Assembly (NCBI RefSeq): GCF_058153355.1
Contig: NZ_CM177019.1
DNA: 64,000 nucleotides
Reading direction: 5' to 3' (one strand)
Below, in pieces: positions 6,011 through 55,954 of this stretch. Below the pieces are notes generated by a model, which searched no databases, was not told the DNA's origin, and saw nothing but the letters and a program-made list of their open reading frames with translations. Numbering within the stretch: position 1 is the first letter of the stretch; the number at the start of each line of letters is the position of its first letter. The translations under genes were made by a program, and so were the position numbers.

Positions 6011-6042
6011 TGCTAACGTCAGATTGTTGACAAAGTGCGCGT

Positions 6043-6150
6043 CGTTCATGCCGGATGCGGCGTGAACGCCTTATCCGGCCTACAAAAATCTTGCCAATTC
6101 AATATATTGCAGGATAGTGTAGGCCTGATAAGCGTAGCGCATCAGGCAGT
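6043..6150. repeat. REP (repetitive extragenic palindromic) elements between fepA and entD
   Basis: gccggatgcggcgtgaacgccttatccggcctac and inverted partner gtaggcctgataagcgtagcgcatcaggc are canonical E. coli REP sequences. Confidence 0.65.
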
Positions 6151-6184
6151 TTTGCGTTTGTCATCAGTCTCTAATATGGTCGAT

Positions 6185-6805: not shown

Positions 6806-6825
6806 TTGACAACATCTGGTACGAT

Positions 6826-7290
6826 TCGCCCGCAGCCATCACTGACCACGGGCGAAAGTGTAAAGCAGGTGCCTTACCATCCTGACCTAACAACCGGATA
6901 TGCGGGGATTACTCCCCGCACAACGGCTACTTCTTCGGTTCGTAAGCGAGAACAGCCCTGAACTCAATATTACGTTCCTTTACGGTGAACTCACACAGCG
7001 AGTCGCCGACCAGAAGCGTAAATCCCAGCACTGTCAAACACAGCACTATGACCGCCACAAGGGCATATTTCGTCAGCATGTTTATATTGCCTCCATGCGA
7101 AGAAGGGACTACCATCCAAATTGTCTGGTTTGGAGTGGCGGCCCCAGGGTTGATAGAAATATCTCCTGGGGCTTCATCTTTCCAGACCTCAGAGTAAACC
7201 TGAAACCGGAAAGCTTCAGGCACCCGCCGTTATCTTACCCTTCCTTAGCAAAATGGCTGTTTATTTATACAGTGAGTCCTGTTTCGGACT
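6826..7290. repeat. Tandem repeat unit 1 of a hok/sok-type locus (~465 bp)
   Basis: Near-identical to 7328..7792 at an offset of 502 bp (direct tandem duplication with a few substitutions). Confidence 0.85.
6927..7079 (-). CDS. Hok-family type I toxin (membrane peptide), 50 aa, tandem copy 1
   Basis: C-terminal 50 aa of minus ORF 6927..7223: [50 protein letters not shown]; Hok/Gef family signature. Confidence 0.8.
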
Positions 7291-7327
7291 TCTGTTGGCA
7301 AAACTGATCATTGCCCTTAAAACGACA

Positions 7328-7792
7328 TCGCCCGCAGCCATCACTGACCGCGGGCGAAAGTGTAAAGCAGGTGCCTTACCATCCTGACCTGACAACCGGA
7401 TATGCGGGGATTACTCCCCGCACAACGGCTACTTCTTCGGTTCGTAAGCGAGAACAGCCTTAAACTCAATATTACGTTCCTTTACGGTGAACTCACACAG
7501 CGAGTCGCCGACAAGAAGCGTAAATCCCAGCACCGTCAAACACAGCACTATGACTGCCACAAAGGCATATTTCGTCAGCATGTTTATATTGCCTCCATGC
7601 GAAGAAGGGACTACCATCCAAATTGTTCGGGTTTGGAGTGGCAGCCCCAGGGTTGATAGAAATATCTCCTGGGGCTTCATCTTCCAGACCTCAGAGTAAA
7701 CCTGAAACCGGAAAGCTTCAGGCACCCGCCGTTATCTTACCCTTCCTTAGCAAAATAGCTGTTTATTTATACAGTTGGTCTTATTTCGGACT
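7328..7792. repeat. Tandem repeat unit 2 of a hok/sok-type locus (~465 bp)
   Basis: Direct repeat of 6826..7290. Confidence 0.85.
7429..7581 (-). CDS. hokE: Hok-family type I toxin HokE-like, 50 aa, tandem copy 2 (adjacent to ybdK)
   Basis: [50 protein letters not shown]; position next to ybdK matches the hokE locus of K-12. Confidence 0.8.
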
Positions 7793-8023
7793 TCTCACTA
7801 CGCATTAGATCAACCGAAACTAAGCCAGTTTTTCCTTCGCCCCTCAATCGTCAAAATTCTCCGCCGCCAGCCAGCTCTGCCATAACCTGGCACATTGCAA
7901 AAGTAGCCAAATTGCTTCAGTAGCAATCAGTTCACCATCACCAAAAAAAAAGAAACATTCCAGAACTTCCGCATCTCCCCCGGCCGCTCCCACTTCTATA
8001 CTGAAATGAAAACGCCAACATAA

Positions 8024-9151
<1,128 letters not shown>

Positions 9152-9216
9152 GTCGGGAATTGCCTTACAGAAGAATATCCCTGACAATGGTGTTTTAACT
9201 TACATTTAACAATGTT

Positions 9217-9465
9217 ATGAAACACCCTTTAGAAACCTTAACCACCGCAGCAGGCATTTTGCTGATGGCTTTCCTCTCTTGCCTGCTGCTGCCCGCCCCC
9301 GCACTGGGACTGACGCTGGCACAAAAACTGGTGAACACGTTCCATCTGATGGATCTTAGCCAGCTTTACACTTTATTGTTTTGCCTGTGGTTTTTAGTGC
9401 TGGGCGCAATTGAGTATTTTGTTCTGCGCTTTATCTGGCGACGCTGGTTCTCGCTGGCGGATTAA
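9217..9465 (+). CDS. ybdJ: Small inner-membrane protein YbdJ, 82 aa
   Basis: 82-aa ORF with two hydrophobic segments; synteny ybdK-ybdJ-ybdF. Confidence 0.8.
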
Positions 9466-9529
9466 ACGTCGATTATCGCCGTACTTCACGGCATACTTTG
9501 CTTATTCTCCTTCGCCTAAAGGAACGTTT

Positions 9530-9898
9530 ATGGATAAGCAATCACTGCACGAAACGGCGAAACGCCTGGCCCTTGAGTTACCCTTTGTCGAGCTTTGCTG
9601 GCCTTTTGGCCCGGAGTTCGATGTTTTTAAAATTGGCGGCAAGATTTTTATGCTGTCGTCGGAGCTGCGCGGCGTCCCCTTTATCAATTTGAAGTCCGAT
9701 CCACAAAAATCCCTGTTAAATCAGCAGATATACCCGAGCATTAAGCCAGGGTATCACATGAATAAGAAGCACTGGATTTCAGTGTATCCAGGCGATGAGA
9801 TCTCCGAAGCGTTACTGCGCGATCTTATCGATGATTCATGGAATTTAGTGGTTGATGGCTTATCTAAACGCGATCAAAAAAGAGTGCGCCCAGAGTAA
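9530..9898 (+). CDS. ybdF: Uncharacterized protein YbdF, 122 aa
   Basis: ORF track 9410..9898; internal ATG at 9530 ([19 protein letters not shown]) gives 122 aa, consistent with YbdF. Confidence 0.82.
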
Positions 9899-9992
9899 AA
9901 GCGAAAATCTATAGCGCATTTTTCTCGCTTACCATTTCTTGTTGAACCTTGTAATCTGCTGGCACGCAAAATTACTTACACATGGAGTCTTT

Positions 9993-10646
9993 ATGGATAT
10001 CATTTCTGTCGCCTTAAAGCGTCATTCCACTAAGGCATTTGATGCCAGCAATAAACTTACCCCGGAACAGGCCGAGCAGATCAAAATGCTGCTGCAGTAC
10101 AGCCCATCCAGCACCAACTCCCAGCCGTGGCATTTTATTGTTGCCAGCACGGAAGAAGGCAAAGCGCGTGTTGCCAAATCCGCCGCCGATAATTACGTGT
10201 TCAACGAGCGCAAAATGCTTGATGCCTCGCACGTCGTGGTGTTCTGCGCGAAAACCGCGATGGACGATGCCTGGCTGAAACAGGTTGTTGACCAGGAAGA
10301 TGCCGATGGCCGCTTTGCCACGCCGGAAGCGAAAGCCGCGAACGATAAAGGTCGCAAATTCTTCGCCGATATGCACCGTAAAGATCTGCATGATGATGCT
10401 GAGTGGATGGCAAAACAGGTTTACCTCAACGTCGGTAACTTCCTGCTGGGCGTTGCGGCGCTGGGTCTGGACGCGGTGCCAATCGAAGGTTTTGACGCAG
10501 CAATCCTCGATGAAGAATTCGGTTTGAAAGAGAAAGGCTACACCAGCCTGGTGGTTGTTCCGGTAGGTCATCACAGCGTCGAAGATTTCAACGCTACACT
10601 GCCGAAATCCCGTCTGCCGCAAAACATCACCATAACTGAAGTGTAA
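9993..10646 (+). CDS. nfsB: Oxygen-insensitive NAD(P)H nitroreductase NfsB, 217 aa
   Basis: ORF track 9939..10646; ATG at 9993 gives [19 protein letters not shown], the recalled NfsB start. Confidence 0.93.
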
Positions 10647-10654
10647 TTCTCCTT

Positions 10655-10676
10655 TGCCGGGCATCCGCCCGGCTAT
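10655..10676 (+). terminator. Possible terminator hairpin after nfsB
   Basis: Perfect stem gccgggc-atcc-gcccggc immediately after the nfsB stop, followed by a weak T-rich tract (tatttcc). Confidence 0.4.
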
Positions 10677-10705
10677 TTCCCCTCAGATTATCCTGATTTG
10701 CATAA

Positions 10706-12001
<1,296 letters not shown>

Positions 12002-20530: not shown

Positions 20531-21968
20531 GCCGTTTCAGCGCCCGTTTTCGCTGGCAACCCGCCTGACCTTTTTTATCAGCCTTGCCACCATTGCAGCG
20601 TTTTTCGTCTTTGCCTGGATCATGATCCACTCGGTAAAAGTGCATTTTGCCGAGCAGGATATTAATGATTTAAAAGAGATTAGCGCCACATTCAGGCGTG
20701 TTCTTAATCATCCCGAAGAGACACAAGCCCGACGCTTAATGACGCTGGAAGATATCGTCAGTGGTTATTCCAACGTGTTGATTTCTCTGACAGATAGCCA
20801 CGGCAAAACGGTGTATCACTCCCCCGGTGCGCCGGATATCCGCGAGTTTGCACGTGATGCCATACCCGATAAAGACGCTCGGAGCGGCGAGGTATATCTC
20901 CTTTCCGGCCCAACAAAGATGATGCCAGGCCACGGTCACGGGCATATGGAACACAGCAACTGGCGGATGATTAGCTTGCCGGTTGGCCCGCAGGTGGATG
21001 GCAAACCGATTTATACGCTCTACATCGCGCTGTCTATCGATTTTCATCTTCATTACATTAATGATTTGATGAATAAACTTATTATGACCGCATCGATCAT
21101 CAGCATCCTGATCGTCTTTATCGTGCTGCTGGCGGTACATAAAGGCCACGCGCCAATTCGCAGCGTCAGCCGTCAAATCCAGAACATTACCTCGAAAGAT
21201 CTCGACGTTCGCCTCGATCCACAGACCGTGCCGATTGAGCTGGAACAACTGGTACTGTCGTTCAACCATATGATCGAGCGTATTGAAGATGTCTTTACCC
21301 GCCAGTCCAATTTCTCAGCGGATATCGCTCACGAAATTCGTACGCCGATTACGAATCTTATAACGCAAACGGAAATTGCCCTCAGCCAGTCGCGCAGCCA
21401 GAAGGAGCTGGAAGATGTGCTCTACTCTAATCTCGAAGAGCTGACGCGAATGGCGAAAATGGTCAGCGATATGCTGTTTCTCGCCCAGGCCGATAACAAC
21501 CAGTTAATCCCCGAAAAGAAAATGCTCAACCTGGCGGATGAAGTCGGCAAAGTGTTCGATTTTTTCGAGGCATTAGCGGAAGATCGTGGCGTGGTGCTGC
21601 GGTTTGTTGGCGACGAATGTCAGGTTGCGGGCGATCCGCTGATGCTGCGTCGGGCGTTAAACAACCTGCTTTCTAATGCCTTGCGTTATACGCCACCCGG
21701 AGAGGCAATTTTAGTGCGCTGCCAGACGGTCGATCACCTGGTGCAAGTTACCGTCGAAAACCCTGGTACGCCCATTGCGCCTGAGCACTTACCGCGATTG
21801 TTTGACCGTTTCTACCGCGTTGATCCTTCCCGCCAGCGAAAAGGTGAAGGTAGCGGCATTGGGCTGGCGATAGTGAAATCAATTGTTGTCGCGCATAAAG
21901 GCACGGTTGCGGTAACGTCAGATGCGCGGGGGACAAGGTTTGTTATCGGGCTACCGGAGAGGGAGTGA
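20520..21968 (+). CDS. cusS: Copper/silver sensor histidine kinase CusS
   Basis: ORF track 20508..21968; ATG at 20520 gives [29 protein letters not shown]-box [11 protein letters not shown]; overlaps cusR end by 11 nt. Confidence 0.93.
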
Positions 21969-39100: not shown

Positions 39101-40486
39101 TTACTTACGACGCCAGGTGGTCCCTTGCGGGCCATCTTCCAGCACGATCCCCATCTCGTTAAGACGGTCACGCGCCGCATCTGCCGCCGCCCAGTCTTTC
39201 GCTTTACGGGCATCCAGACGCTGTTGAATTAACGCTTCAATCTCAGCCACTTCGCTGTCGTCTGCCTGCGCGCCGCTTTGCAGGAACGCTTCCGGTTCTT
39301 GCTCCAGCAGGCCCAATACAGCGGAAAGTTTACGCAGGTGAGATGCCATTGCATTCGCCGCTGCCATATCTTCTGCTTTCAGACGGTTCACTTCACGCGC
39401 CATATCAAACAGCACGGAATAGGCTTCCGGGGTGTTGAAATCGTCGTCCATCGCTTCAATAAAGCGCGCTTCAAACGCTTCACCACCCGCAGGAGCAACG
39501 GTTTTATCTGTGCCGCGCAGCGCAGTGTAGAGACGCTCCAGTGCCGCACGCGCCTGCTTCAGGTTCTCTTCGCTGTAGTTCAGCTGGCTGCGATAGTGCC
39601 CCGACATCAGGAAGTAACGCACGGTTTCGGCATCGTAGTATTTCAGCACATCGCGCACGGTAAAGAAGTTACCCAGCGATTTGGACATCTTCTCTCGGTC
39701 AACCATTACCATCCCCGAGTGCATCCAGTAGTTCACATACTGGCCATCATGGGCACAGGTGGACTGCGCGATTTCGTTCTCGTGGTGCGGGAACATCAGG
39801 TCAGAACCGCCGCCGTGGATATCAAAGTGGTTACCCAGCTGCTTGCAGTTCATTGCCGAACATTCAATGTGCCAGCCTGGACGGCCCGCGCCCCACGGAG
39901 ACGGCCAGCTCGGTTCGCCCTCTTTCGACATCTTCCACAGAACGAAGTCCATCGGGTTGCGTTTGTCGTCGACCACGTCAACGCGCGCGCCTGCCTGCAG
40001 CTGGTCGAGATCCTGACGCGACAGCACGCCATAAGTTGGATCGGTCGGTACGTCGAACATCACGTCGCCGTTGTCCGCCACATAAGCGTGACCTTTGGCG
40101 ATCAGTTGTTCAGTGAGTTCAATAATTTCTGCGATATGGTGCGTCGCGCGCGGCTCCATATCCGGGCGCAGAATGTTCAAAGCATCAAAATCTTTGTGCA
40201 TTTCGGCGATCATGCGATCCACCAGCGCTACAAAGCTTTCGCCATTTTCATTGGCACGCTTGATGATTTTGTCGTCGATATCGGTAATGTTGCGCACATA
40301 CTTCAGCTTATAGCCGAGGAAACGCAGATAGCGCGCAACCACGTCAAAGGCAACAAAGGTACGCCCGTGACCGATATGACAGAGATCGTAAACGGTGATT
40401 CCACACACGTACATGCCGACTTCCCCGGCGTGAATAGGCTTAAATTCCTCTTTTTGGCGTGTCAGAGTATTGAAGATTTTTAGCAT
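39101..40486 (-). CDS. cysS: Cysteinyl-tRNA synthetase CysS, 461 aa
   Basis: 461-aa [18 protein letters not shown] with HIGH ([13 protein letters not shown]) and KMSKS motifs. Confidence 0.97.
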
Positions 40487-42505: not shown

Positions 42506-43569
42506 AACAGGTTTGCGTCCTCGGTAACGGGCAGTTAGGCCGTATGTTGCGCCAGGCAGGCGAACCGTTAGGCATTGCTGTCTGGCCGGTCGGGCTGGAC
42601 GCTGAACCGGCGGCGGTGCCCTTTCAACAAAGCGTGATTACCGCTGAGATCGAACGCTGGCCGGAAACCGCATTAACGCGCGAGTTGGCACGCCATCCGG
42701 CCTTTGTGAACCGCGATGTGTTCCCAATTATTGCCGACCGTCTGACTCAGAAGCAGCTTTTCGACAAGCTTCACCTGCCGACCGCACCGTGGCAGTTACT
42801 TGCCGATCGCAGTGAGTGGCCTGCAGTGTTTGATCGTTTAGGTGAACTGGCGATTGTTAAGCGTCGCACTGGTGGCTATGACGGTCGCGGTCAATGGCGT
42901 TTACGCGCCGATGAAACCGCACAGTTACCGACTGAATGCTACGGCGAATGTATTGTCGAGCAGGGCATTAACTTCTCTGGCGAAGTATCGCTGGTTGGCG
43001 CGCGCGGCTTTGATGGCAGCACTGTGTTTTATCCGCTGACGCATAACCTGCATCAGGACGGTATTTTGCGCACCAGCGTCGCTTTCCCGCAGGCCAACGC
43101 ACAGCAGCAGGCGCAGGCCGAAGAGATGCTGTCGGCGATTATGCAGGAGCTGGGCTATGTTGGCGTGATGGCGATGGAGTGTTTTGTCACCCCGCAAGGT
43201 CTGCTGATCAACGAACTGGCTCCGCGTGTACATAACAGTGGTCACTGGACGCAAAACGGTGCCAGCATCGGCCAGTTTGAGCTGCATCTGCGGGCAATTA
43301 CCGATCTGCCGTTACCGCAACCGGTGGTCAATAGCCCGTCAGTGATGATCAACCTGATTGGTAGCGATGTGAACTATGACTGGCTGAAACTGCCGCTGGT
43401 GCATCTGCACTGGTACGACAAAGAAGTGCGTCCGGGCCGTAAGGTGGGGCATCTGAATTTGACCGACAGCGACACATCGCGTCTGACCGCAACGCTGGAA
43501 GCTTTAATCCCGCTGCTGCCGCCAGAGTATGCCAGCGGCGTGATGTGGGCGCAGAGTAAGTTCAGTTAA
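42502..43569 (+). CDS. purK: N5-carboxyaminoimidazole ribonucleotide synthase PurK, 355 aa
   Basis: 355-aa ATP-grasp [19 protein letters not shown]; start overlaps purE stop (ATGA). Confidence 0.96.
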
Positions 43570-43584
43570 CCTGGTACTCATATT

Positions 43585-43790
43585 CCTGCCGGATGCGGCG
43601 TGAACGCCTTATCCGGCCTACTAATCCGGTACCCATTGTAGGCCTGATAAGAGGCGTCAAGCGTCGCATCAGGCATGGTGCGCCGATTACCGGATGCGGC
43701 GTGAACGCCTTATCCGACTACCAATCCGGTACCCATTGTAGGCCTGATAAGAGGCGTCAAGCGTCGCATCAGGCATGGTGCGCCATATGC
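43585..43790. repeat. BIME/REP cluster: two ~100-bp direct repeats each containing inverted REP elements
   Basis: ccggatgcggcgtgaacgccttatccg...gtaggcctgataagaggcgtcaagcgtcgcatcaggcatggtgcgcc occurs twice in tandem between convergent purK and ybcF. Confidence 0.75.
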
Positions 43791-43802
43791 TGGATGCTCC
43801 CA

Positions 43803-44699
43803 TCACGACAGCGAAATACAGGTCCCCGCTTCGCCCGCCAGCGTCTCTTCAATCCGCGATAACGCCCCAATCCACGCAGGTTTACCACGGCTTCTGACAT
43901 AGCCACTCACCGCCGTTACCTTCGGTCCCATCGCCCCATCGGCTTTGGCAAATGGCGCTAACTCATCCGGTGTGGCATGGGGAATGGCGCGTTGCTGCGG
44001 CGTTCCCCAGTTTTCATAAACCGCATCAGCATCGGTGAGGATCACCAGTCCATCGGCATTAATCTGCTCGGCAAGCAACGCCGCGGCGAGATCTTTATCA
44101 ATCACCGCTTCACTCCCTGCTCCGTCATCCGTCACCGGAACACCGCCGCCGCCACTGCAAATCACCACATGCCCCTCTTTGAGCAACAACTCGATGGCTT
44201 CGCTGTCGAGAATTTTACGAGGCTGGGGAGATGCCACCACCCGGCGTAAATATTTGCCATCACGCTTCATTTGCCAGCCGTAAGTCGTTTCCAGTGCCTC
44301 TTGTTCTTCTGGCTGATAAACCGGGCCGATAAACTTCTCTGGCTGCAAAAACGCCGGATCATCAGGCGAAACTTCAATGCGCGTCAGCATCGTCGTGACA
44401 GGCGGCATCTGCGGCTGTGCGCTCAAGCTCTGCGCCAGCATATAGCCAATCATCCCCTGGCTTTCCGCCACCAGCACATCCAGCGGATACGGTTCTACCT
44501 CTTTCCACGCCAGATTCTGTAACGCCAGCAGCCCCACCTGTGGCCCGTTGCCGTGAACAATCGCCAGCCGATAAGAACGGGCCAGGCGCGCCAGTGCGGG
44601 TACAGCACTGGCAATGTTGCGATATTGATTTTCTGCCGTCAGCGCTTCGCCGCGCTGGAGTAAGGCGTTGCCCCCAAGAGCCACAACCAGTGTTTTCAT
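43803..44699 (-). CDS. ybcF: Carbamate kinase-like protein YbcF (ArcC family)
   Basis: 298-aa [21 protein letters not shown], amino-acid kinase family; synteny with ylbF-ylbE-fdrA. Confidence 0.88.
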
Positions 44700-45511
44700 G
44701 GTGTTCCTTGTAATAATTGTTGACCAAGCCAGAACCCCAGCAGCGTATCTGCCCCTGACGTATGCCCCAGCGCCAGCAGCGAATCAATCGCAACAGCGGT
44801 ACGTTTCGGGCAACTCAGAGCATGAACAAAGTGCAGGAGTGGCGAGGCGAAATATCCTTGCGCGGCGTAACGTAAATAATTAACGCTCACCGCCGTGGTA
44901 ACGAGTTGAAGATTGTCGGAACAGGCAAAAAACGGGCGACCGGAGCGCGCATCTAAAGCGCCAAAATACCAGGCCGCCAGCAGCATTCCGCTCAGCGTGT
45001 CATCATGACTCGGCGTTAATCCCGGCCCTTTACCCAGCCAGTGCCGCCAGTCGGTCTTAACGCCATTGAGCGCGGCCTGAAAACAGTGACGAAACTGGCG
45101 TAATTCAGCGGGAAGCGGATCGCCTGCCGCCAACGCCAGCGGCCCGAAAAGCCCGGTTTCCTCCGCGCGTTGCATCCATGCCGCTGCAAGCGGTTGAGGA
45201 TGCGCAGGCGGCGTAATACGCAGCAAACAATAACGCTGTGGCTGTTTAACCGTGAAACGCCCGAGGCGAATCCCTTGAGCCATAACCTGCGGTCGTTCAT
45301 TGCCGCATAATCCACCGCATAACGCATCGAATTGTGCGCGGCGAAGCACCCATCCTCCGGGACCGAAACCACTTCCCTGACGATGTAGCGTTAACAGTTC
45401 GCCGCTTTCTGTCAGCAGATTAATCGCCCGCCGCCAGATGCCCGCTAACCGCCAGGACTGGCGATAGTCAGGTGCACTACGACTGGCAAGCAGAGGATGG
45501 ATGATCGTCAT
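44696..45511 (-). CDS. ylbF: Uncharacterized protein YlbF (DUF2877), 271 aa
   Basis: ORF track 44696..45604; internal ATG at 45511 ([16 protein letters not shown]) gives 271 aa; 4-nt overlap with ybcF. Confidence 0.82.
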
Positions 45512-45521
45512 TGCGCGTTCC

Positions 45522-46781
45522 TCAACCAATCCCCATGCTTTCAGCCAGAGCTTCCAGCGCCTGTTCAAAGCACGCCAGCGGTGCCCGCACAGTGCCTGCG
45601 CCAATCTGCCCGATCCCCGCCTCTTTATGGGCGATACCCGTATTGATGAGTGGTGTAATGCCGGTTTCTACCACGCGACGAATATCCAGCCCCAGACACG
45701 CGCCCTGGAAATCCCAGCCAGGGATCTGCAACTGCATATTGCGCTCAAGGAAGATTTCTGCCATCTCTTCAGATACAGCTCTGGCTGCTTCCATACCACC
45801 TGCACCGACAAAGCGTGTTACGCCAGGGGCGGCGATCATTGCCGCACCACCGATACCAAAGGTTTCGGTAATCGCGCTATCGCCCATATCCGGGTTCGCC
45901 TGCACCTGCGAGAAGCCGGTGAAAAACAGACCTTGGGGAGTGTTTACAGGCGCAGTAAACCAGCGTTCGCCCAGCCCGCTGACCCGAATCCCGAACATAC
46001 TGCCGTTGCGGGTCATAGCCGTAACGATGCTGCCTGCGCGGATCATCGCACCAGTATCCATCGCCGCCTTGCAGTAAGCCATCGCGAGGTTAAGGAAGAA
46101 CTGATCGGTCACGCTGAGGAAATCCATCACTTCCGCAATGTGCTGTTTATCATGATCGAGGCGAGCAATTTGTGGGGCCAGCGCACGCATTAACAGTGCT
46201 GAGGAAGCAATATTGCGTTGATGAAACTCATCGCCCATCGTAATGCCCTGCGCCATCATCGCCGTGAGATCGATACCGCGCTCCATGCGCCCCAGCGCCG
46301 CGCTTAATACTGGCATTAACACATCGCGCATCCAGCGATGGCGAGTCAGGACATCTTCGCCGTAAGCGCCAAAACGCATCACTTTACCGATACCTTCATT
46401 GAGGTTGCAGTACGCCCGGTTACCGTCGGTCACGTTCTCGACCACCAGCATCGGCATACTGGCAGAAGTAATTCCGCCCATTGGCCCGACGGCATTCACA
46501 TGGTGACAAGGAATGAAGTTCACTTCCCCCTGCTCCAGCATCGCCAGTGCCTGCGCTTCATCTTTCGCCCAGCCTTCAAACAGACACGCACCCACGCACG
46601 CCCCTTTCATGGGGCCGGTCATCTCCTGCCAGCGCATCGGCGGCCCGGCGTGAAGCAGTGTTTTGCCCGGGTGTAGTTCACTGATAAGTGAAGAAGCCGG
46701 TTGCACATCCAGCCAGTGTGGACGAGCGCGACGAATTTGTTCGATAACCGCAGCATTGGCTTGCGCCACTGATGTAAACAT
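45522..46781 (-). CDS. ylbE: Uncharacterized protein YlbE (DUF1116), 419 aa, intact
   Basis: Uninterrupted 419-aa [26 protein letters not shown]; synteny. Confidence 0.85.
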
Positions 46782-46790
46782 GGGAACCCC

Positions 46791-48458
46791 TTATTGCAAA
46801 CGTTCTAATAAACGAGCCAGTTTTTTATTGCCGCCAGCGACTGGTGACCATTGGTAATGCACAACCGGTTTGCTGGCGCTTTGTAGTTCCAGCGCAAAGC
46901 TGCGTAATCCGATGTTAATCACGGCGACGTTTTCCAGTAGTGACGGTGTGTGTTGCTGTGTGGCAGGCGAGAGCGGATGAATTAACGCCGCCGCCAGCAA
47001 GGTGGCTTCCGGCAGCGAACTCACTACCGCGATCCCTGCATCTTCCAGCGTGGCGATTTGTTGCGAGCGGCATTGCGGGTCACGTTCAGTGCCTGTCACT
47101 GTGGCAATGGCATACAGTGGTTGATTGTCTGAACGCGCGGCACAGGCTTTTTGCCAGGCGCTTACCAGCGAGGCTGCAGGATCGGCAGTCGCACCGAAGC
47201 CAATCACCACATCAAGCAGCAATACGCGCACTTGCGCTTTAGCGCCGAGATCGGCAATTAACTGGTTGCGTAAGGTTGGGTCGATCATCGGATGGGGACG
47301 CCCGACGGTGTAGAAATCATCGCCGAGGTCAATGATCTGGTGACCATCGGCGTCCAGCATCATGCCGTGATGATGGGCATCGTCGGCTACCACGCCAAGA
47401 TGCCTGGCAAGTAATCCCGCCGCTTCGGCGGCCAGCGTACCGCCGGTATACAAGCCGCAAATAAGTCCGCTGCTGGCAGGCGCTATCGCGTTACGTCGCG
47501 CCGTAACGCGTGAAAGCAGGCAAGCCAGACGCGCGGCCTCATCCAGCGAGGAGGCAAACCAGACATTCTCGTCGCGGGCCACCGCCGGGATATAACCTAA
47601 AAACAGCGCCACCGTTGGTTTGCCGGTTGCTTTCATGGCATTAACAATTTTCAGACGCACAGCTTCGGCAGGCGGTTTTGAAACAAACGCCAGCACTTCG
47701 CTTTTCTCATCTACACTGAGCATTTCCAGCGCCGTTAGCGCACTGATGCCGCCCACGTCACGGCTGAGGTCGCGCCCGCCAAGACCAATCGCGTGAGTAA
47801 TTCCCTCACCTGCCAGTGCAATCTGCGAACACAGTTCCTGAATCCCGGTACCGGAAGCGCCAATGACGCCAATGTTGCCTTCCGGCATCACGTTAGCAAA
47901 AGCCAGCGGCGTGGCGGCAATCATCGATGTACCGCAGTCCGGCCCCATCACCAGCAAACCTTTTTCCCGCGCGCGGGTTTTAAGTTGGATTTCATCTTCC
48001 AGCGTGACGTTATCGGAGAACATCATCACGTTGAGGTTGCGATCCAGCGCCTGGTTCGCCAGTTCCGCCGCATACTCGCCAGCCACTGAAATCAGCGCCA
48101 GATTGGCATTGGGTAATTTCTGACTGGCACTGTCCCAGCGACGTACCTGCGTCAACGCCTGGCTGCTGCCTGTACCCTGTGCCAGTTGTTTTAGCGCCTC
48201 TTCAAGCTGCCGCATAATCGCCTGCGCGATCCCTGCATCCGCCGCTTCGCTACGAATCGCCACGCAAATATCGTTCGGCGTGGCGTGATTAAAATCGTCA
48301 TGCCAGAAACCTGTAGTCTCTAATAACGCTTTATTGGCGGGCGTACCCATCATTACGGAAACATCATCAACATTTTCTGATTCGCTGAGTTTTCGTGAAA
48401 TAATCATTAAACTGACCGAATCCTGAAAACACCCTTTTTTAATAAAGGCGTGGATCAT
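46791..48458 (-). CDS. fdrA: FdrA (acyl-CoA synthetase NDP-forming-like / CoA-binding), 555 aa
   Basis: 555-aa ORF MIHAFIKKGCFQDSVSLMIISRKL; succinyl-CoA-synthetase-like domains; synteny. Confidence 0.88.
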   Translation of the reverse strand: MIHAFIKKGCFQDSVSLMIISRKLSESENVDDVSVMMGTPANKALLETTGFWHDDFNHATPNDICVAIRSEAADAGIAQAIMRQLEEALKQLAQGTGSSQALTQVRRWDSASQKLPNANLALISVAGEYAAELANQALDRNLNVMMFSDNVTLEDEIQLKTRAREKGLLVMGPDCGTSMIAATPLAFANVMPEGNIGVIGASGTGIQELCSQIALAGEGITHAIGLGGRDLSRDVGGISALTALEMLSVDEKSEVLAFVSKPPAEAVRLKIVNAMKATGKPTVALFLGYIPAVARDENVWFASSLDEAARLACLLSRVTARRNAIAPASSGLICGLYTGGTLAAEAAGLLARHLGVVADDAHHHGMMLDADGHQIIDLGDDFYTVGRPHPMIDPTLRNQLIADLGAKAQVRVLLLDVVIGFGATADPAASLVSAWQKACAARSDNQPLYAIATVTGTERDPQCRSQQIATLEDAGIAVVSSLPEATLLAAALIHPLSPATQQHTPSLLENVAVINIGLRSFALELQSASKPVVHYQWSPVAGGNKKLARLLERLQ

Positions 48459-48774
48459 AACAACTCCTTAAAAATTGCACCCATGGCAATTGCACGAGCA
48501 ATGTTAATGTGGCGATTACGGTATCGATGGATGGTGATAAATAAGGTGATGAATATCACACAGACATTATTAACAAAAGAATTCAAATAACCGCCAGACT
48601 ATTACGCGTTATTTTTTAATAAGCATAGTTGTTTTAAAAACCAGGTTAAAAGCGAGCGGATTATCAAATAAATTCTAACTATATTTTTTTGCCTGTCTGG
48701 ATCACATAATCCAGATATTTTCCCTGTATGTTAATTGCAGTCATGCTTCACACCGTCGTTAAAAAGGAAGACAG

Positions 48775-49824
48775 ATGAAAATCAGTCGGGAAACACTCCA
48801 CCAGCTAATCGAGAATAAACTCTGTCAGGCTGGGTTAAAACGTGAGCACGCTGCAACCGTGGCTGAAGTATTGGTTTACGCCGATGCCAGAGGGATCCAC
48901 TCTCATGGCGCGGTGCGCGTTGAATACTACGCAGAGCGCATATCAAAAGGCGGCACCAACCGCGAACCAGAGTTTCGTCTTGAAGAAACCGGACCGTGCT
49001 CGGCAATTTTACATGCCGACAATGCCGCCGGACAGGTCGCGGCAAAAATGGGTATGGAACATGCCATCAAAACCGCCCAGCAAAAAGGCGTTGCGGTGGT
49101 CGGTATCAGCCGGATAGGTCACAGCGGCGCAATCTCTTATTTTGTGCAGCAGGCAGCCCGCGCCGGATTGATTGGCATTTCGATGTGCCAGTCCGATCCA
49201 ATGGTGGTGCCGTTTGGCGGCGCGGAAATTTACTACGGCACTAACCCACTGGCCTTTGCCGCGCCGGGAGAAGGCGACGAGATCCTTACTTTTGATATGG
49301 CGACTACCGTACAGGCATGGGGAAAAGTGCTCGACGCCCGCTCGCGCAATATGTCTATCCCGGATACCTGGGCGGTCGATAAAAACGGTGCACCAACAAC
49401 CGATCCCTTCGCGGTTAACGCCCTGCTCCCGGCTGCCGGACCGAAAGGTTATGGCCTGATGATGATGATCGACGTCCTCTCAGGCGTCTTACTCGGCTTA
49501 CCGTTCGGGCGTCAGGTCAGTTCGATGTATGACGATTTACACGCCGGACGTAATTTGGGGCAATTACATGTAGTTATTAACCCGAACTTTTTCTCCTCCA
49601 GCGAATTATTCCGTCAACATCTTAGCCAGACCATGCGCGAATTAAATGCCATAACCCCCGCGCCCGGTTTTAACCAGGTTTATTATCCCGGACAGGATCA
49701 GGATATTAAACAACGCAAAGCCGCCGTCGAAGGCATCGAAATTGTTGATGATATTTACCAGTATTTAATTTCCGACGCGCTTTATAACACGTCATACGAA
49801 ACGAAAAATCCCTTTGCGCAATAA
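48775..49824 (+). CDS. allD: Ureidoglycolate dehydrogenase AllD, 349 aa
   Basis: 349-aa ORF MKISRETLHQLIENKLCQAGL; Ldh_2 family. Confidence 0.92.
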   Translation: MKISRETLHQLIENKLCQAGLKREHAATVAEVLVYADARGIHSHGAVRVEYYAERISKGGTNREPEFRLEETGPCSAILHADNAAGQVAAKMGMEHAIKTAQQKGVAVVGISRIGHSGAISYFVQQAARAGLIGISMCQSDPMVVPFGGAEIYYGTNPLAFAAPGEGDEILTFDMATTVQAWGKVLDARSRNMSIPDTWAVDKNGAPTTDPFAVNALLPAAGPKGYGLMMMIDVLSGVLLGLPFGRQVSSMYDDLHAGRNLGQLHVVINPNFFSSSELFRQHLSQTMRELNAITPAPGFNQVYYPGQDQDIKQRKAAVEGIEIVDDIYQYLISDALYNTSYETKNPFAQ

Positions 49825-49845
49825 TTGTTGAGACAGGACTTTCTT

Positions 49846-51081
49846 ATGATTACACATTTCCGTCAAGCCATAGAAGAAACGCTGCCCTGGCTTTCCTCTT
49901 TTGGCGCTGACCCAACGGGTGGAATGACCCGTTTACTTTATTCGCCGGAGTGGCTGGAAACCCAGCAGCAATTTAAAAAAAGAATGGCAGCAAGTGGGCT
50001 GGAAACACGTTTCGATGAAGTGGGGAATTTATACGGCCGCCTGAACGGCAGCGAATACCCTCAGGAAGTGATTCTGAGCGGTTCGCATATTGATACCGTG
50101 GTTAACGGCGGTAACCTCGACGGACAATTCGGCGCACTGGCGGCGTGGCTGGCGATTGACTGGCTGAAAACGCAATACGGCGCGCCGCTGCGAACGGTCG
50201 AAGTGGTGGCAATGGCGGAAGAAGAAGGCAGCCGCTTCCCGTATGTCTTCTGGGGCAGTAAAAATATCTTTGGGCTGGCGAATCCTGACGACGTGCGGAA
50301 TATCTGTGATGCCAAAGGAAATAGTTTTGTCGATGCGATGAAGGCTTGTGGATTTACTCTGCCCGCCGCCCCACTGGCTCCGCGTCAGGACATCAAAGCC
50401 TTTGTCGAACTGCATATCGAACAGGGTTGTGTGCTGGAAAGTAATGGTCAGTCAATTGGCGTGGTGAATGCGATTGTCGGGCAACGTCGCTACACGGTGA
50501 CGCTGAACGGCGAATCAAACCATGCAGGCACCACGCCGATGGGTTATCGTCGTGATACGGTTTACGCTTTCAGTCGCATTTGCCATCAGTCAGTTGAGAA
50601 AGCGAAAAAGATGGGCGATCCGCTGGTGCTGACCTTTGGCAAGGTGGAGCCGCGCCCGAATACGGTGAATGTAGTGCCGGGTAAAACCACGTTCACTATT
50701 GATTGTCGTCATACCGACACTGCCGTGTTGCGCGATTTTACCCAACAGTTAGAAAACGACATGCGGGCGATTTGCGATGAAATGGACATTGGTATTGATA
50801 TCGATTTATGGATGGACGAAGAACCCGTGCCGATGAACAAGGAGCTTGTCGCCACCCTGACAGAATTGTGTGAAAGCGAAAAACTGAATTATCGGGTAAT
50901 GCACAGTGGTGCCGGGCACGACGCACAAATTTTCGCGCCTCGCGTGCCGACCTGCATGATTTTCATTCCCAGCATCAACGGGATCAGCCATAACCCGGCG
51001 GAACGCACCAATATTACCGACCTTGCCGAAGGGGTCAAAACGTTGGCACTCATGCTTTATCAACTTGCCTGGCAGAAATAA
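49846..51081 (+). CDS. allC: Allantoate amidohydrolase AllC, 411 aa
   Basis: ORF track 49825..51081; ATG at 49846 gives MITHFRQAIEETLPWL; M20 peptidase family. Confidence 0.92.
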   Translation: MITHFRQAIEETLPWLSSFGADPTGGMTRLLYSPEWLETQQQFKKRMAASGLETRFDEVGNLYGRLNGSEYPQEVILSGSHIDTVVNGGNLDGQFGALAAWLAIDWLKTQYGAPLRTVEVVAMAEEEGSRFPYVFWGSKNIFGLANPDDVRNICDAKGNSFVDAMKACGFTLPAAPLAPRQDIKAFVELHIEQGCVLESNGQSIGVVNAIVGQRRYTVTLNGESNHAGTTPMGYRRDTVYAFSRICHQSVEKAKKMGDPLVLTFGKVEPRPNTVNVVPGKTTFTIDCRHTDTAVLRDFTQQLENDMRAICDEMDIGIDIDLWMDEEPVPMNKELVATLTELCESEKLNYRVMHSGAGHDAQIFAPRVPTCMIFIPSINGISHNPAERTNITDLAEGVKTLALMLYQLAWQK

Positions 51082-51091
51082 GGAGTTATAA

Positions 51092-51877
51092 ATGGGATAT
51101 TTAAATAACGTCACCGGTTACCGCGATGATTTACTGGCTAACCGTGCGATTGTTAAACACGGTAATTTCGCGCTGCTAACCCCGGACGGTCTGGTAAAAA
51201 ATATTATTCCGGGCTTTGAAAATTGTGACGCAACAATCCTCTCCACGCCAAAGCTGGGGGCCTCTTTTGTTGATTATCTGGTCACACTGCATCAAAACGG
51301 CGGCAACCAACAGGGCTTCGGTGGTGAAGGAATTGAAACGTTCCTGTATGTGATCTCTGGAAATATCACTGCCAAAGCCGAAGGGAAAACATTTACCTTA
51401 AGCGAAGGTGGTTATCTTTATTGCCCGCCAGGCTCCTTAATGACTTTTGTTAACGCCCAGGCCGAAGACAGCCAAATCTTTTTATATAAGCGTCGCTATG
51501 TTCCGGTAGAAGGTCATGCGCCGTGGCTGGTTTCTGGCAATGCCAGCGAACTGGAACGCATTCATTATGAAGGCATGGACGATGTTATTCTGCTGGATTT
51601 TCTGCCCAAAGAGTTAGGTTTTGATATGAACATGCATATCCTCTCTTTTGCGCCAGGTGCCAGCCACGGTTATATCGAAACTCACGTCCAGGAACACGGT
51701 GCCTATATTCTTTCCGGTCAGGGGGTTTATAACCTCGACAATAACTGGATCCCGGTGAAAAAAGGCGATTACATCTTTATGGGCGCTTATTCCTTACAGG
51801 CTGGTTATGGCGTAGGACGTGGTGAAGCGTTCAGCTATATTTACTCGAAAGATTGCAACCGTGATGTTGAGATTTAA
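51092..51877 (+). CDS. allE: (S)-ureidoglycine aminohydrolase AllE (YlbA), cupin, 261 aa
   Basis: 261-aa ORF MGYLNNVTGYRDDLLANRAIVKHGNF; synteny after allC. Confidence 0.9.
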   Translation: MGYLNNVTGYRDDLLANRAIVKHGNFALLTPDGLVKNIIPGFENCDATILSTPKLGASFVDYLVTLHQNGGNQQGFGGEGIETFLYVISGNITAKAEGKTFTLSEGGYLYCPPGSLMTFVNAQAEDSQIFLYKRRYVPVEGHAPWLVSGNASELERIHYEGMDDVILLDFLPKELGFDMNMHILSFAPGASHGYIETHVQEHGAYILSGQGVYNLDNNWIPVKKGDYIFMGAYSLQAGYGVGRGEAFSYIYSKDCNRDVEI

Positions 51878-52007
51878 GTCATACCACTCGCCTGATTATT
51901 TTTAGCTATGTTGGATTTTGCCACGGTTTATACCGTGGCTTTTTTTTTGTAGTCAATTCAGGTAAAAAAAGATGCGATATAAATCGCATCCGCTTTAAAG
52001 GTAAGAG

Positions 52008-53153
52008 TCAGTTTTTAATTCCCTGACCTATTTTAATGGCGCAGGCAATATTTCGCGCGCTGTTGAAGAGATTGGTTTCACCGCTTGCGAGCACTTCGGC
52101 TAAAGGTGCCAAACGTGGCAAAATGCTGAACACCGCGTCAATGCCGTACTGGTGCACCACTTCCACGCCATCACCCAATACGCCAGCAATCCCAATCACC
52201 GGGACATTAAACTGCTTCGCCACCGATGCCACACCCAGCGGCGCTTTACCGCCTGCCGTTTGCGAGTCGATGCGCCCTTCCCCGGTGATCACCAGTGCTG
52301 CACCCTGCACCGCCTGCGCAAGATTGACCGCATTCAACACAATCTCAATACCCGGTTTAATATCCGCATTGAGGAATACCGCTGCGGCAATTCCCATGCC
52401 TCCGGCCGCGCCGCCGCCCGCCATCTGGCAGACGTTGATTTCAGTTAGCTGTTGTAAAACACGGGCGTAATTTTGCAGCCCCTGTTCCAGCTCTTCGACC
52501 ATTTCTGGCGTTGCCCCTTTTTGCGGGCCAAACACCGCCGCCGCGCCGCGTGCCCCTACCAACGGATTATCTACATCGCACGCTACTTCAATATGGCAGT
52601 TCGCCAGGCGCGGATCGCACTCCTCCATCTCAATGCTTGCCACGCGCGCTAAATTGCCGCCGTTAGCCACCAGCACCTGACCGTCGGCATCGAGAAAACG
52701 CACACCGAGCGCCTGCGCCATGCCCATACCGCCGTCGACCGTCGCGCTACCACCAATGCCGAGAATAATATGGCGAATATCGTTATCCAGCGCATGGCGA
52801 ATTAACTCCCCCGTACCAAAACTGGAGGCCAGCAACGGATTACGCTTTTCAGGCTCGACCAGCATCAGGCCACTTGCAGCCGCCATCTCAATCACCGCCG
52901 TTTTCCCGTCGCCGGTAAGGCCATAAAAAGCATTCACTGTTTCCCCCATCGGCCCACAGACTTCAAGCGTCACGATTTTGCCGCCCGTCGCGGCGACCAT
53001 CGCCTCCACCGTCCCTTCGCCGCCATCCGCTATCGGCAGACAGATATAGTGCGCATCGGGAAAGAGGGTCGAAAACCCGGCTTTAATTGCCTGACAACAT
53101 TTTTCTGCACTTAAGCTCTCTTTAAACGAGTCTGGTGCAATGACAATTTTCAT
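52008..53153 (-). CDS. glxK: Glycerate 2-kinase GlxK, 381 aa
   Basis: ORF track 52008..53159; ATG at 53153 gives [27 protein letters not shown]. Confidence 0.92.
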
Positions 53154-53174
53154 TATCAATCCTTTTTCAACAAA

Positions 53175-54476
53175 TTATTCGATGCGTTCCCACGGAATAA
53201 GATTATCCATAAGAACAGCCAGTAAAATTCCGACCAGTAAGCCGTTACTGAGCAGAGGACGAAGCGTTAATGGAAGGTCTTGCAGATACACAGGCGGTAA
53301 TGCCATTAAAAATATGCCGACAAATAACGGCAATGCGAGTCGATAAATATTGCGAGCGGTAAACGTGATTTGCTGGCTAAACACCAGCGCGGAAAAGAGT
53401 AAAGGCAGATAAGAAACCAGCATGACCGCGCTACTGACTGGTAAGGGGATACTGCAAAACAGTCGCGTGAGTGCCGGAACCAGTGCCACCAGCAGGCAAA
53501 TAACGCTGCCATAAATAAACGAACGCCGCGTGTAATCGCCAGTCTGGGTTAATAAACCAATGGATGAAACAAACGGTGAAAATGGAATTACCGCCAGCGG
53601 CACGGTTATCAGCGTCATAAATCCGGTCGCCACAAAGCTGCGACGATAACGCGTATTCCCCGCGCCCTGTTGCGGATAAAAAACATCCGTGCCACGAATC
53701 GCACCGTAGGTATTGCTGATATTTACCAGACCTGTAATCACCGCCGTCAGAATAATCCCCGGCAACAAAGCACCGCCACTGCCAAGCGGGAACCACTGCC
53801 AGTGCAACTCACCGGAAAGCGAGTGCGAAGAAGGAAAGCAAAAGTACCACAACAACCAGCCGGTTATGGTACCGACCAGCAGGCCATAACGGGCAAAACG
53901 TTGCGGCAGAAAAATAATCATTGCCAGTACCAGGCACATCACCGCCACCGAGAGCGCGAACGGCGGTAACTGAATTTTAAAATTCGGGTCGGCTATGCCA
54001 AACGGCAGGCCGAGCATACCTTTGAAAAAGATAGTGGTCAGCTGCGCGCCCAGCATCAACATAAACAAGACCATCACCGACGGCGTAAATAACCGCGCCA
54101 GGCGATGACCTAATCCGCTAAAACCAATCAACATCGTCAGCACGCCAGAAATCGCAATCCCCACCGCCAGACTGGTAGCGATATCGTTGATCGGGGTCCC
54201 GCGCGATGCTTCGCCAAGGGTAATAGTAAGGATGGTTCCCCACCACAGGCCACCCGGCCCTTCCATAATAGCGCGACGATGACCGCAGAACGCCTGAGCG
54301 AAGCAGGCCAGTGCGGTAGCAAGAAAAGCATATTGCGTGAGCGTAAGCAGGCTACTTTGCGGCAACTGAAAAGCAGAAAGTAGCGTAGGAGGAACCACAA
54401 CCGTGTTGCAAAAAATAAAGAAAAACCACTGAAATCCTGATAACAGGCTTTCGCGGCTGACTGCAAAATTGAACAT
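53175..54476 (-). CDS. ybbY: Putative purine/uracil permease YbbY, 433 aa
   Basis: ORF track 53175..54482; NCS2-family membrane protein; start at MFNFAVSRESLL. Confidence 0.88.
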   Translation of the reverse strand: MFNFAVSRESLLSGFQWFFFIFCNTVVVPPTLLSAFQLPQSSLLTLTQYAFLATALACFAQAFCGHRRAIMEGPGGLWWGTILTITLGEASRGTPINDIATSLAVGIAISGVLTMLIGFSGLGHRLARLFTPSVMVLFMLMLGAQLTTIFFKGMLGLPFGIADPNFKIQLPPFALSVAVMCLVLAMIIFLPQRFARYGLLVGTITGWLLWYFCFPSSHSLSGELHWQWFPLGSGGALLPGIILTAVITGLVNISNTYGAIRGTDVFYPQQGAGNTRYRRSFVATGFMTLITVPLAVIPFSPFVSSIGLLTQTGDYTRRSFIYGSVICLLVALVPALTRLFCSIPLPVSSAVMLVSYLPLLFSALVFSQQITFTARNIYRLALPLFVGIFLMALPPVYLQDLPLTLRPLLSNGLLVGILLAVLMDNLIPWERIE

Positions 54477-54532
54477 AAACACACCTTAACCGGAGAATGC
54501 CCGCCGCAAGGACGGGCATTGCAGGGGCCAGA

Positions 54533-55894
54533 TTACTGCTGATGTTTAAGGATAAATTGACCTTTCGGCGCAACAGGGAAGCCCTGTTCGATGTCGTAAA
54601 TCACATCACCACGTAAGAGGGTTTTCGTGATACGCGCGCCAATGGTACGGCCAACATACGGGCTGACTTTGTGGCGATATTCCAGATCGTCATTGGTAAG
54701 AACATAGCTGCTATTCGGCTGAATGAAGACGAAGTCGGCATCTTTTCCTGGGGCGATCCGGCCTTTTTGCTGCAAACCGAAAATATCTGCTGCGTTAGTT
54801 GCCATTAATTTGCCGAACATCGGCAGAGACATACCACGTTTCTGTACCGCTTCATCGAACATCACGTCCATGCAGCTTTGCAGACCGGCGATACCGCCCC
54901 ATGCTTTCATAATGTTACCGGCTTTCATTTCCGGCGGGCATGGAGAGTGGTCGGAAACCAGGCAGTCGATTTCACCGTTAAACAGTTTTTCCCACATGCC
55001 TTTCTGGTTTTCCAGATCGCGGATCGGTGGTGAACACTTCGCCAGAGTACCGATTTCTTCGAACTGATCGGTATCCAGCACAAAGTAATGCGGGCAGGAT
55101 TCACAGGTAACATCCTGGCCTTCCTGACGTGCACGAGTCACTTCCTCAACACCTTCCGGGCTGCTGATATGACAAACGTGCAGACGGCAACCAGCAACTT
55201 TCGCCAGGTACAGCACGCGGCGAATCGCTTCCACTTCGGTAAATACCGGACGCGAAGCCACATAGTCATGTGCGGTTACGCGACCTTCACGTTTCGCTTC
55301 TTCGCCCAGTTCGTCACAGATCAGCGCGTTTTCGCAGTGCACCAGCACCGGCTGTCCCAGTTCGCCCAGCTTCTGCGCACCTTTGAAGAACTGCCAGTCA
55401 TTGACGTCACGGAAGTCGTTGTCGATACCGCGATCGCCACAGGTCGCAACGAAGCATTTGAAGCCGACAACGCCCACTTCATCCAGCTCATGCAGACGGT
55501 CGATGTTGTAAGACACCAGGCCACCGAGTTGCGCCGCATCGATAGTCAGCTTGCCTTTAGCGGCATCAAACTTCAGTTCAATCGATGCGCGGTCAACCGT
55601 TGCAGGCTGCTGGTTGAGCGGCATTTCGATCATGGTGGTGATACCCCCTTTTGCCGCTGCGCGAGTACCCGTTTCATAACCTTCCCAGTGGCTACGACCC
55701 GGTTCAGAAATATGGGTGTGCGCATCAACCATGCCTGGCGAAACCACCAGACCAGACGCATCCATAACTTCTTTTGCATCGCCCAGATCCTGACCGATAG
55801 CAGCAATTTTTCCGCCTTTAACGGCGATATCTACAACGCGAGCTTCGTTTTCTAAAATAACGGTGCCGTTTTTAATGATTAAATCAAAAGACAT
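54533..55894 (-). CDS. allB: Allantoinase AllB, 453 aa
   Basis: ORF track 54533..55942; ATG at 55894 gives [28 protein letters not shown]; amidohydrolase motifs (DAHTH). Confidence 0.93.
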
Positions 55895-55954
55895 AACAAA
55901 CTCCTTGTAAAATACAGATTGGTTTTTTAACTCAATGTTCAATATCGGGATTAA

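Follow-up and report, generated by a model that had tools for sequence, protein, structure and literature searches.

An intact allFGHK operon, predicted to encode oxamic transcarbamylase and a catabolic carbamate kinase, with near-identical counterparts in E. coli K-12

The four genes analyzed here, located in a stretch of 64,000 nt from contig NZ_CM177019.1 (assembly GCF_058153355.1; hereafter the window), very probably constitute the allFGHK operon, formerly fdrA-ylbE-ylbF-ybcF, and are predicted to encode oxamic transcarbamylase and a catabolic carbamate kinase (probability about 0.95). They are intact, near-identical orthologues of the K-12 genes in the same arrangement and with a near-identical regulatory region, and we infer that the window copies work like their K-12 counterparts. 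The module is real, ordinary and already known; the function, co-transcription and regulation of the operon were published between 2022 and 2025, and finding it here carries little weight as a discovery.

Its annotation is uneven across databases. The names "Acyl-CoA synthetase FdrA" and "DUF1116/DUF2877" persist in many RefSeq records and can hide a solved pathway. Pfam names the two former DUFs AllG (formerly DUF1116) and AllH (formerly DUF2877), and some RefSeq annotation already reads "oxamate carbamoyltransferase subunit AllH family protein."

Gene content and comparison with K-12

ORF listing and translation confirmed four co-directional, closely packed genes on the minus strand, all without internal stops, as described in the initial annotation. 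Of the spacings given there, the 4-nt overlap of the ylbF stop with the ybcF start (ATGA) and the 10-nt gap between ylbE and ylbF were correct, but fdrA and ylbE are separated by 9 nt, not 10. The domain content that it had proposed was also borne out, the matches to the FdrA subfamily, Pfam AllG, Pfam AllH and the carbamate kinase equivalog all being well above their curated cut-offs.

The first gene, allF (fdrA; 46791-48458, minus strand), is a single ORF preceded by AAGGAG and encodes a 555-aa protein, the predicted succinyl-CoA-synthetase-alpha-like subunit of oxamic transcarbamylase. It scored 1027.7 bits against the NCBIfam FdrA subfamily model (cut-off 433), carries the Pfam domains CoA_binding (PF02629, 47.7 bits) and Ligase_CoA (PF00549, 124.1 bits), and matched PDB entry 3DMY ("Protein fdrA") with an E value of 3.7e-295. 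The intact allG (ylbE; 45522-46781, minus strand) encodes a putative 419-aa subunit with the AllG domain PF06545. For allH (ylbF; 44696-45511, minus strand) the mechanical ORF extends to a TTG at 45604; the chosen ATG start, with a GAGGA Shine-Dalgarno sequence, yields a putative 271-aa subunit, which matched PF11392 ("Oxamate carbamoyltransferase subunit AllH") at 102.2 bits and contains the conserved motifs G160-x-G-x-GLTPxxDD and G249-HTSGxD. The residues D170/D171 and H250/S252 of these motifs are invariant, as are H44, H93, H187 and H385 in AllG. The last gene, allK (ybcF; 43803-44699, minus strand), encodes a predicted catabolic carbamate kinase of 298 aa with the amino-acid-kinase fold (PF00696). 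The NCBIfam carbamate kinase equivalog NF006926 was matched at 614.6 bits (cut-off 416), TIGR00746 was also above its cut-off, and matches to carbamate kinases in PDB had E values from 1.8e-88 to 9e-37. Thus adjacent, co-directional genes of the FdrA, PF06545 and PF11392 types are followed, at the end of the unit, by a carbamate kinase gene overlapping allH by 4 nt, as expected for this operon. A consensus scan for internal promoters and terminators yielded fewer sites than it did in shuffled controls; none of them lay between genes.

Compared with allFGHK of E. coli K-12 (b0518, b4572, b0520, and b0521), the gene order, the 9- and 10-nt gaps, the 4-nt overlap, the position between purK and allD and the 316-bp divergent promoter region are common to both. 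Gene lengths are equal except for one extra allK codon (a C-terminal residue) in the window. Otherwise only allelic divergence of about 4-5% was seen at the nucleotide level. All four proteins are full length and syntenic, with amino acid identities to MG1655 of 96.4% for FdrA (without gaps), 98.1% for YlbE, 96.7% for YlbF and 97.7% for YbcF, corresponding to 20, 8, 9, and 7 residue differences. The first three genes contain no indels relative to MG1655, and their synonymous/nonsynonymous codon changes number 48/20, 45/8, and 25/9, respectively, a substitution pattern that shows apparent purifying selection. Of the 5426 complete E. coli genomes compared, no fewer than 5401 contain the 6-kb stretch carrying the module (BLAST, ≥80% coverage); none is more than 97.6% identical across it, and one independent assembly has the same gene order. 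For the allF-operon, cysS and all-cluster queries, identities to complete E. coli genomes stayed at or below 97.6-98.6%; the short envY-fimZ query reached 99.0%, in strain WL297. Exact protein matches came from Logan assemblies only.

Proposed pathway and the role of AllF

In the proposed pathway, AllB, AllC and AllE would convert allantoin to ureidoglycolate, which AllD would oxidize to oxalurate. The three-subunit oxamic transcarbamylase AllF-AllG-AllH would then phosphorolyse oxalurate to oxamate and carbamoyl phosphate, and AllK would pass the phosphate of carbamoyl phosphate to ADP, giving ATP and carbamate, the latter expected to decay to NH3 and CO2. The initial annotation had suggested an anaerobic branch from oxalurate/oxamate to carbamoyl phosphate and ATP; this was right, and experiments in E. 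coli K-12 have since established the branch (PMC9843812, PMC11326118, PMC12535856). Purified K-12 YbcF (AllK) was shown to be a catabolic carbamate kinase and RT-PCR detected a four-gene transcript (Kim & Kim 2022, PMC9843812). The K-12 complex FdrA-YlbE-YlbF (AllFGH) was subsequently identified as oxamic transcarbamylase (Kim & Kim 2024, PMC11326118). The window copies would thus, from their similarity to the K-12 genes, have the same oxalurate/oxamate-carbamoyl phosphate transferase and carbamate kinase activities and be transcribed as a polycistronic mRNA.

The idea that the module might be dispensable for oxamate formation is contradicted by the K-12 genetics, in which deletions abolish or reduce oxamate while allantoin is still consumed, via the glyoxylate branch (PMC11326118). 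No oxamate was formed by the single allF, single allG or triple deletion strains, and the allH deletion formed 1.2 mM vs. 17.7 mM in the wild type; allF, allG and allH together restored oxamate in the triple mutant (PMC11326118). Deletion of ybcF in K-12 gave no growth or flux phenotype (PMC9843812).

The reaction type resembles that of the classical transcarbamylases (ATCase PyrB, OTCase ArgI/ArgF, and YgeW), namely carbamoyl transfer to or from carbamoyl phosphate. However, AllF, AllG and AllH have no sequence or domain similarity to those enzymes (Pfam; PMC11326118), the carbamoyl-phosphate-binding and Asp/Orn-binding domains of OTCase/ATCase not being found in any of the three by Pfam search, and three different subunits take the place of the homotrimeric catalytic core.

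An earlier proposal made FdrA a genuine acyl-CoA ligase, activating oxamate so that it can be degraded further, and assigned the transcarbamylase to YlbE and/or YlbF only (CanOE 2012, PMC3364942). The CoA_binding and Ligase_CoA domains, which AllF shares with succinyl-CoA synthetase alpha and NDP-forming acyl-CoA synthetases, the weak similarity to the former, and the RefSeq name "acyl-CoA synthetase FdrA," still in use, are consistent with such a role. We nevertheless consider it very improbable. Deletion of allF by itself abolishes oxamate formation in K-12, when allF is left out, allGH recovers only about 16% of oxamate in the triple mutant, and the wild type accumulates oxamate as an end product (17.7 of 19.5 mM) (PMC11326118). 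Furthermore, the purified K-12 AllFGH, assayed in the reverse direction, converts oxamate and carbamoyl phosphate with only MgCl2 and Tris, i.e., in the absence of CoA and nucleotide (PMC11326118).

The sequence of FdrA also argues against a ligase. Residues 117-261 of AllF align with residues 65-209 of SucD (22% identity, E value 5e-9). The GHAGA motif of SucD forms its phosphohistidine loop. FdrA gave no significant alignment with E. coli SucD over the phosphohistidine region, alignments with succinyl-CoA synthetase alpha ending at about alpha residue 209-237, and inspection of FdrA residues 286-311 revealed no His. No similarity of FdrA to the ATP-grasp beta subunit SucC was detected, and a Pfam search found no ATP-grasp gene within the operon. 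In contrast to succinyl-CoA synthetase, AllFGH of K-12 works without CoA or nucleotide and requires two unrelated partner subunits. AllF, as a transcarbamylase subunit, may use a succinyl-CoA-synthetase-alpha-like scaffold for CoA-independent formation of an acyl phosphate. Such a step would be akin to the first half-reaction of succinyl-CoA synthetase, the transfer of phosphate to ADP being left to AllK. This possible analogy is drawn only from domain homology and from the phosphohistidine loop and ATP-grasp partner not being found.

The ylbE reading frame and conservation of the arrangement

The initial annotation described ylbE as a single 419-aa ORF, which is correct, and took it to be annotated as frameshifted in MG1655, so that this strain might hold the functional version. 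Taken further, standard E. coli (K-12) would carry ylbE as a pseudogene, the window strain would be unusual in its functional copy and the module would work here and not in the reference. Older MG1655 records (U00096.2 coordinates) did list ylbE as pseudogene fragments, and resequencing papers reported "+G" at 547,831 relative to the older MG1655 reference. We give this reading almost no credence. The current reference, NC_000913.3, was included in our comparison and annotates ylbE (b4572) as an intact gene of 1260 bp and 419 aa, which refutes the pseudogene. The frameshift in the older reference amounts to one missing G in a run of GGGGG, and this run is identical in the window and in NC_000913.3. 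A 2012 study had already noted that no other sequenced E. coli has the frameshift and regarded it as a probable sequencing error (CanOE, PMC3364942). In addition, ylbE is annotated as a protein among the E. coli records listed, and the functional work on AllG was done entirely in K-12 derivatives. An intact ylbE is the normal state in E. coli, and a special status of the window gene, equal in length to that of NC_000913.3 and with the same G5 run, was rejected. The frameshift attributed to MG1655 belongs to an obsolete reference sequence and is unfit for flagging strains as special.

Nothing was found in favor of a chance or decaying arrangement of four ORFs without joint function, which we dismiss in view of its retention in nearly all the E. 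coli genomes and the independent assembly, the purifying-selection pattern, the co-transcription shown in K-12 (PMC9843812) and the paralogous yahE-yahF-yahG-yahI cluster, which repeats the same four protein families. In that K-12 cluster, yahE-yahF-yahG-(yahH)-yahI-yahJ, the AllH-like (DUF2877) YahE, FdrA-like YahF, AllG-like (DUF1116) YahG and carbamate-kinase-like YahI occur together; YahG is 45% identical to YlbE of the window and YahE is 26% identical to YlbF. The yah cluster differs in its order (H-F-G vs. F-G-H), in an extra amidohydrolase (YahJ) and in lying outside the allantoin regulon.

Regulatory region and purK-allK spacer

The start of fdrA (48458, minus strand) and that of allD (48775, plus strand) diverge across 316 bp; therefore, the module lies upstream of allD-allC-allE, and its placement downstream of allDC-ylbA in the initial annotation was wrong. 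The divergent genes allD-allC-allE (ylbA) (48775-51877, plus strand) encode ureidoglycolate dehydrogenase, allantoate amidohydrolase and ureidoglycine aminohydrolase, predicted to catalyze the preceding pathway steps, and matched the MG1655 proteins as full-length single tblastn HSPs (98.3, 98.1, and 98.9%, respectively). Full-length matches likewise cover the remaining allantoin regulon, glxK to allS (52011-63752), so that the whole regulon from allS to allK is present (tblastn).

The regulatory region between allD and allF (48459-48774) has the same length as in MG1655, with 300 of 317 aligned columns identical. This region is common to the divergent allDCE operon, and from a promoter within it the four genes would be transcribed into one mRNA; AllS would activate that promoter in response to allantoin, and ArcA-P in response to anaerobiosis. 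In K-12, AllS and ArcA activate the operon, both being required, and both bind the promoter in EMSA (Kim & Kim 2025, PMC12535856). The homologue of the AllS EMSA fragment (-203/-144) lies at 48602-48661 and is identical to the K-12 fragment at 54 of 60 positions; that of the ArcA-P fragment (-142/-83) lies at 48541-48600, with 56 of 60 positions identical. This homology points to a putative AllS/ArcA-P promoter region in the window. Two candidate sigma-70-like sites on the minus strand, matched by consensus only, are at 48734-48706 and 48699-48672.

At the other end of the module, the convergent purK-allK spacer (43570-43802) carries tandem REP/BIME copies, seen as repeated GCCGGATGCGGCG...GCCTGATAAGACGCGTCAAGCGTCGCATCAGGC units in the alignment with MG1655 and N96, and an Rfam match to naRNA4 (REP-derived) at 43641-43719. 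The spacer probably contains the 3' end of the operon transcript. This REP spacer is 39 bp longer than in MG1655 (233 vs. 194 bp), and its REP/BIME repeats account for the 170,876 places that BLAST returned for the module query.

Organization of the allFGHK locus

The four genes ybcF (allK, 43803-44699, 298 aa), ylbF (allH, 44696-45511, 271 aa), ylbE (allG, 45522-46781, 419 aa), and fdrA (allF, 46791-48458, 555 aa) are all encoded on the minus strand. The ORF list and direct translation found no interruption in any of them, which confirms the four co-directional genes of the initial annotation. For ylbF, the ATG with an upstream GAGGA was chosen as the start (the mechanical ORF reaches a TTG at 45604, within ylbE). 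The 4-nt overlap (ATGA) of ylbF and ybcF and the 10-nt gap between ylbE and ylbF were as first described, but the gap between fdrA and ylbE is 9 nt, not 10 nt. The spacing of all four genes in MG1655 is exactly the same, and a plausible Shine-Dalgarno sequence precedes each of fdrA, ylbE, ylbF, and ybcF. The module had also been placed downstream of allDC-ylbA. This is not the case: fdrA starts at 48458 (−) and allD at 48775 (+), so the two units diverge across an intergenic region of 316 bp, a length shared with MG1655. Long antisense ORFs occur within ylbE (45501-46193, +, 230 aa) and cysS (39278-40483, +, 401 aa); both were regarded as shadow ORFs, the real gene in each case being on the other strand.

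YbcF belongs to the amino-acid kinase family (Pfam) and scored 614.6 bits against the carbamate kinase equivalog of NCBIfam (cut-off 416). YlbF and YlbE matched PF11392 and PF06545, currently named in Pfam "Oxamate carbamoyltransferase subunit AllH" and "Oxamate carbamoyltransferase subunit AllG", respectively. FdrA carries CoA_binding and Ligase_CoA domains (Pfam) and falls in the FdrA subfamily of NCBIfam (1027.7 bits vs. cut-off 433). Identity to the MG1655 proteins was 96.4% for FdrA, 98.1% for YlbE, 96.7% for YlbF, and 97.7% for YbcF, the sole indel being an extra C-terminal residue in YbcF of the window. Synonymous codon differences from MG1655 far outnumbered nonsynonymous ones (48/20, 45/8, and 25/9). 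By every criterion testable at the sequence level, the locus qualifies as an allFGHK operon, and as such it is already known.

The ylbE reading frame in MG1655

The initial annotation regarded ylbE as intact here and frameshifted in MG1655. Comparison with the K-12 annotation did not bear this out: ylbE in NC_000913.3 (b4572, YP_009029994.1) is also annotated as an intact gene of 1260 bp. The frameshift belonged to an earlier MG1655 reference; resequencing against it reportedly gave a "+G" at old coordinate 547,831, by which the ylbE pseudogene becomes an ORF (PMC5460176). One study described an insertion in ylbE, at base 253, as a known variation of common MG1655 stock cultures (PMC4404585), and another reported that the ylbE change gives back the intact ancestral gene (PMC3045373). 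The frameshift site is a GGGGG run at approximately nt 251-255, which is the same in the window and in NC_000913.3. Together with the intact K-12 gene, the identical run indicates that an intact ylbE is the normal state. The sole novelty claimed for the locus thus rests on an obsolete reference sequence.

Function, regulation, and proposed mechanism

In K-12, fdrA-ylbE-ylbF-ybcF form one transcript by RT-PCR, and purified YbcF, renamed AllK, is a carbamate kinase with a KM of 0.47 mM for carbamoyl phosphate (Kim & Kim 2022, PMC9843812). Oxamate production from allantoin was abolished by deletion of allF or allG, and deletion of allH reduced it to 1.2 mM vs. 17.7 mM in the wild type (Kim & Kim 2024, PMC11326118). 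Restoration in the triple mutant required allF, allG, and allH together, and purified AllF-AllG-AllH converted oxamate and carbamoyl phosphate in a mixture of only MgCl2 and Tris, without CoA or nucleotide (PMC11326118). Allantoin under anaerobiosis induced the operon ∼38-fold (Kim & Kim 2025, PMC12535856). The anaerobic function first assigned to the module was therefore correct, but its status as "proposed" has been outdated by the K-12 work (PMC9843812, PMC11326118, PMC12535856). The homologue of the K-12 AllS EMSA fragment (48602-48661) is identical at 54 of 60 positions, and that of the ArcA-P fragment (48541-48600) at 56 of 60.

The pathway steps have been shown for K-12; near-identity and synteny suggest the same for the copies in the window. 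Allantoin would be converted to ureidoglycolate by AllB, AllC, and AllE (YlbA), and ureidoglycolate oxidized to oxalurate by AllD. AllFGH would then phosphorolyse oxalurate to oxamate, an excreted end product, and carbamoyl phosphate, from which AllK would form ATP from ADP, freeing carbamate and hence NH3.

The crystal structure of FdrA itself, 3DMY, was recovered as a match. Residues 117-261 of FdrA align to SucD 65-209 (22% identity, E 5e-9); the phosphohistidine region of SucD lay outside any significant alignment, and FdrA showed no similarity to the ATP-grasp subunit SucC. By analogy with succinyl-CoA synthetase, AllF might supply a CoA-independent acyl-phosphate-forming site, and the separate AllK would then stand in for the phosphohistidine/ATP-grasp half-reaction. 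YlbF homologues share invariant GxGxGLTPxxDD (160-171) and GHTSGxD (249-255) motifs; across Enterobacterales, YlbE is conserved at 71-93% vs. about 50-69% for YlbF.

The locus is neither a classical ATCase/OTCase-fold transcarbamylase nor a true succinyl-CoA-synthetase-type ligase. Among other systems, the closest is the paralogous K-12 cluster yahE-yahF-yahG-yahI-yahJ (4926-11508 of the MG1655 yah-region sequence, L003), in which the four families recur in a different order: DUF2877 YahE, FdrA-like YahF, DUF1116 YahG, and carbamate-kinase-like YahI, with the amidohydrolase YahJ. In RefSeq, none of the five is named for a demonstrated function. The module is a candidate for a second ureide phosphorolysis pathway.

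Distribution and neighboring elements

Of 5426 complete E. coli genomes, 5401 contain the 6-kb stretch at ≥80% coverage, and an identical FdrA protein with the same neighbors occurs in an independent public assembly. From allD to allS (48775-63752), the remaining genes of the allantoin regulon gave full-length single matches at 97.6-100% identity. We searched the complete E. coli genomes with 28300-31400 (envY-fimZ), 39101-40486 (cysS), 43000-49000 (allF operon), and 48459-64000 (all cluster). No match of ≥99% identity was found among them over the three longer queries, the best being 97.6% for the allF operon, 98.6% for cysS, and 98.2% for the all cluster. With the short envY-fimZ query, identity reached 99.0%, in strain WL297. 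Since the same few strains (WL297, 2013C-4282, N96, MFDS1022581, and 2017-02-2CC) recur among the closest matches in three of the four queries, cysS being the exception, the window appears to come from a somewhat divergent E. coli lineage.

The allF-operon query hit 170,876 BLAST places because the convergent purK-ybcF spacer (43570-43802) consists of tandem REP/BIME units. This spacer is 233 bp vs. 194 bp in MG1655 (39 bp longer) and contains a match to naRNA4, a REP-derived nucleoid-associated RNA (Rfam; 43641-43719, −).

The allantoinase gene allB, full length in the window (54536-55894), is annotated as frameshifted in N96, one of the closest relatives (20532-21888 of the N96 sequence L001). 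A match to the enterobacterial sRNA family STnc480 (Rfam; 51884-51950, −; 86.1 bits vs. gathering score 72) sits in the convergent allE-glxK spacer. Between entD and ybdK, a hok/sok toxin-antitoxin unit is present as two tandem 502-bp copies (6826-7795, 96-97% alike). Each has a sok match on the minus strand (Rfam; 7071-7225 and 7573-7727) and a 50-aa Hok frame (MLTKYA...YEPKK) inside a longer minus-strand ORF. The tRNA-Arg(tct) gene argU (30291-30367) is flanked directly by envY and fimZ (29484-31200), and prophage DLP12 and ompT, which presumably occupy this site in K-12, are absent from the interval. The envY-fimZ stretch was matched contiguously in 2416 of the 5426 complete genomes.
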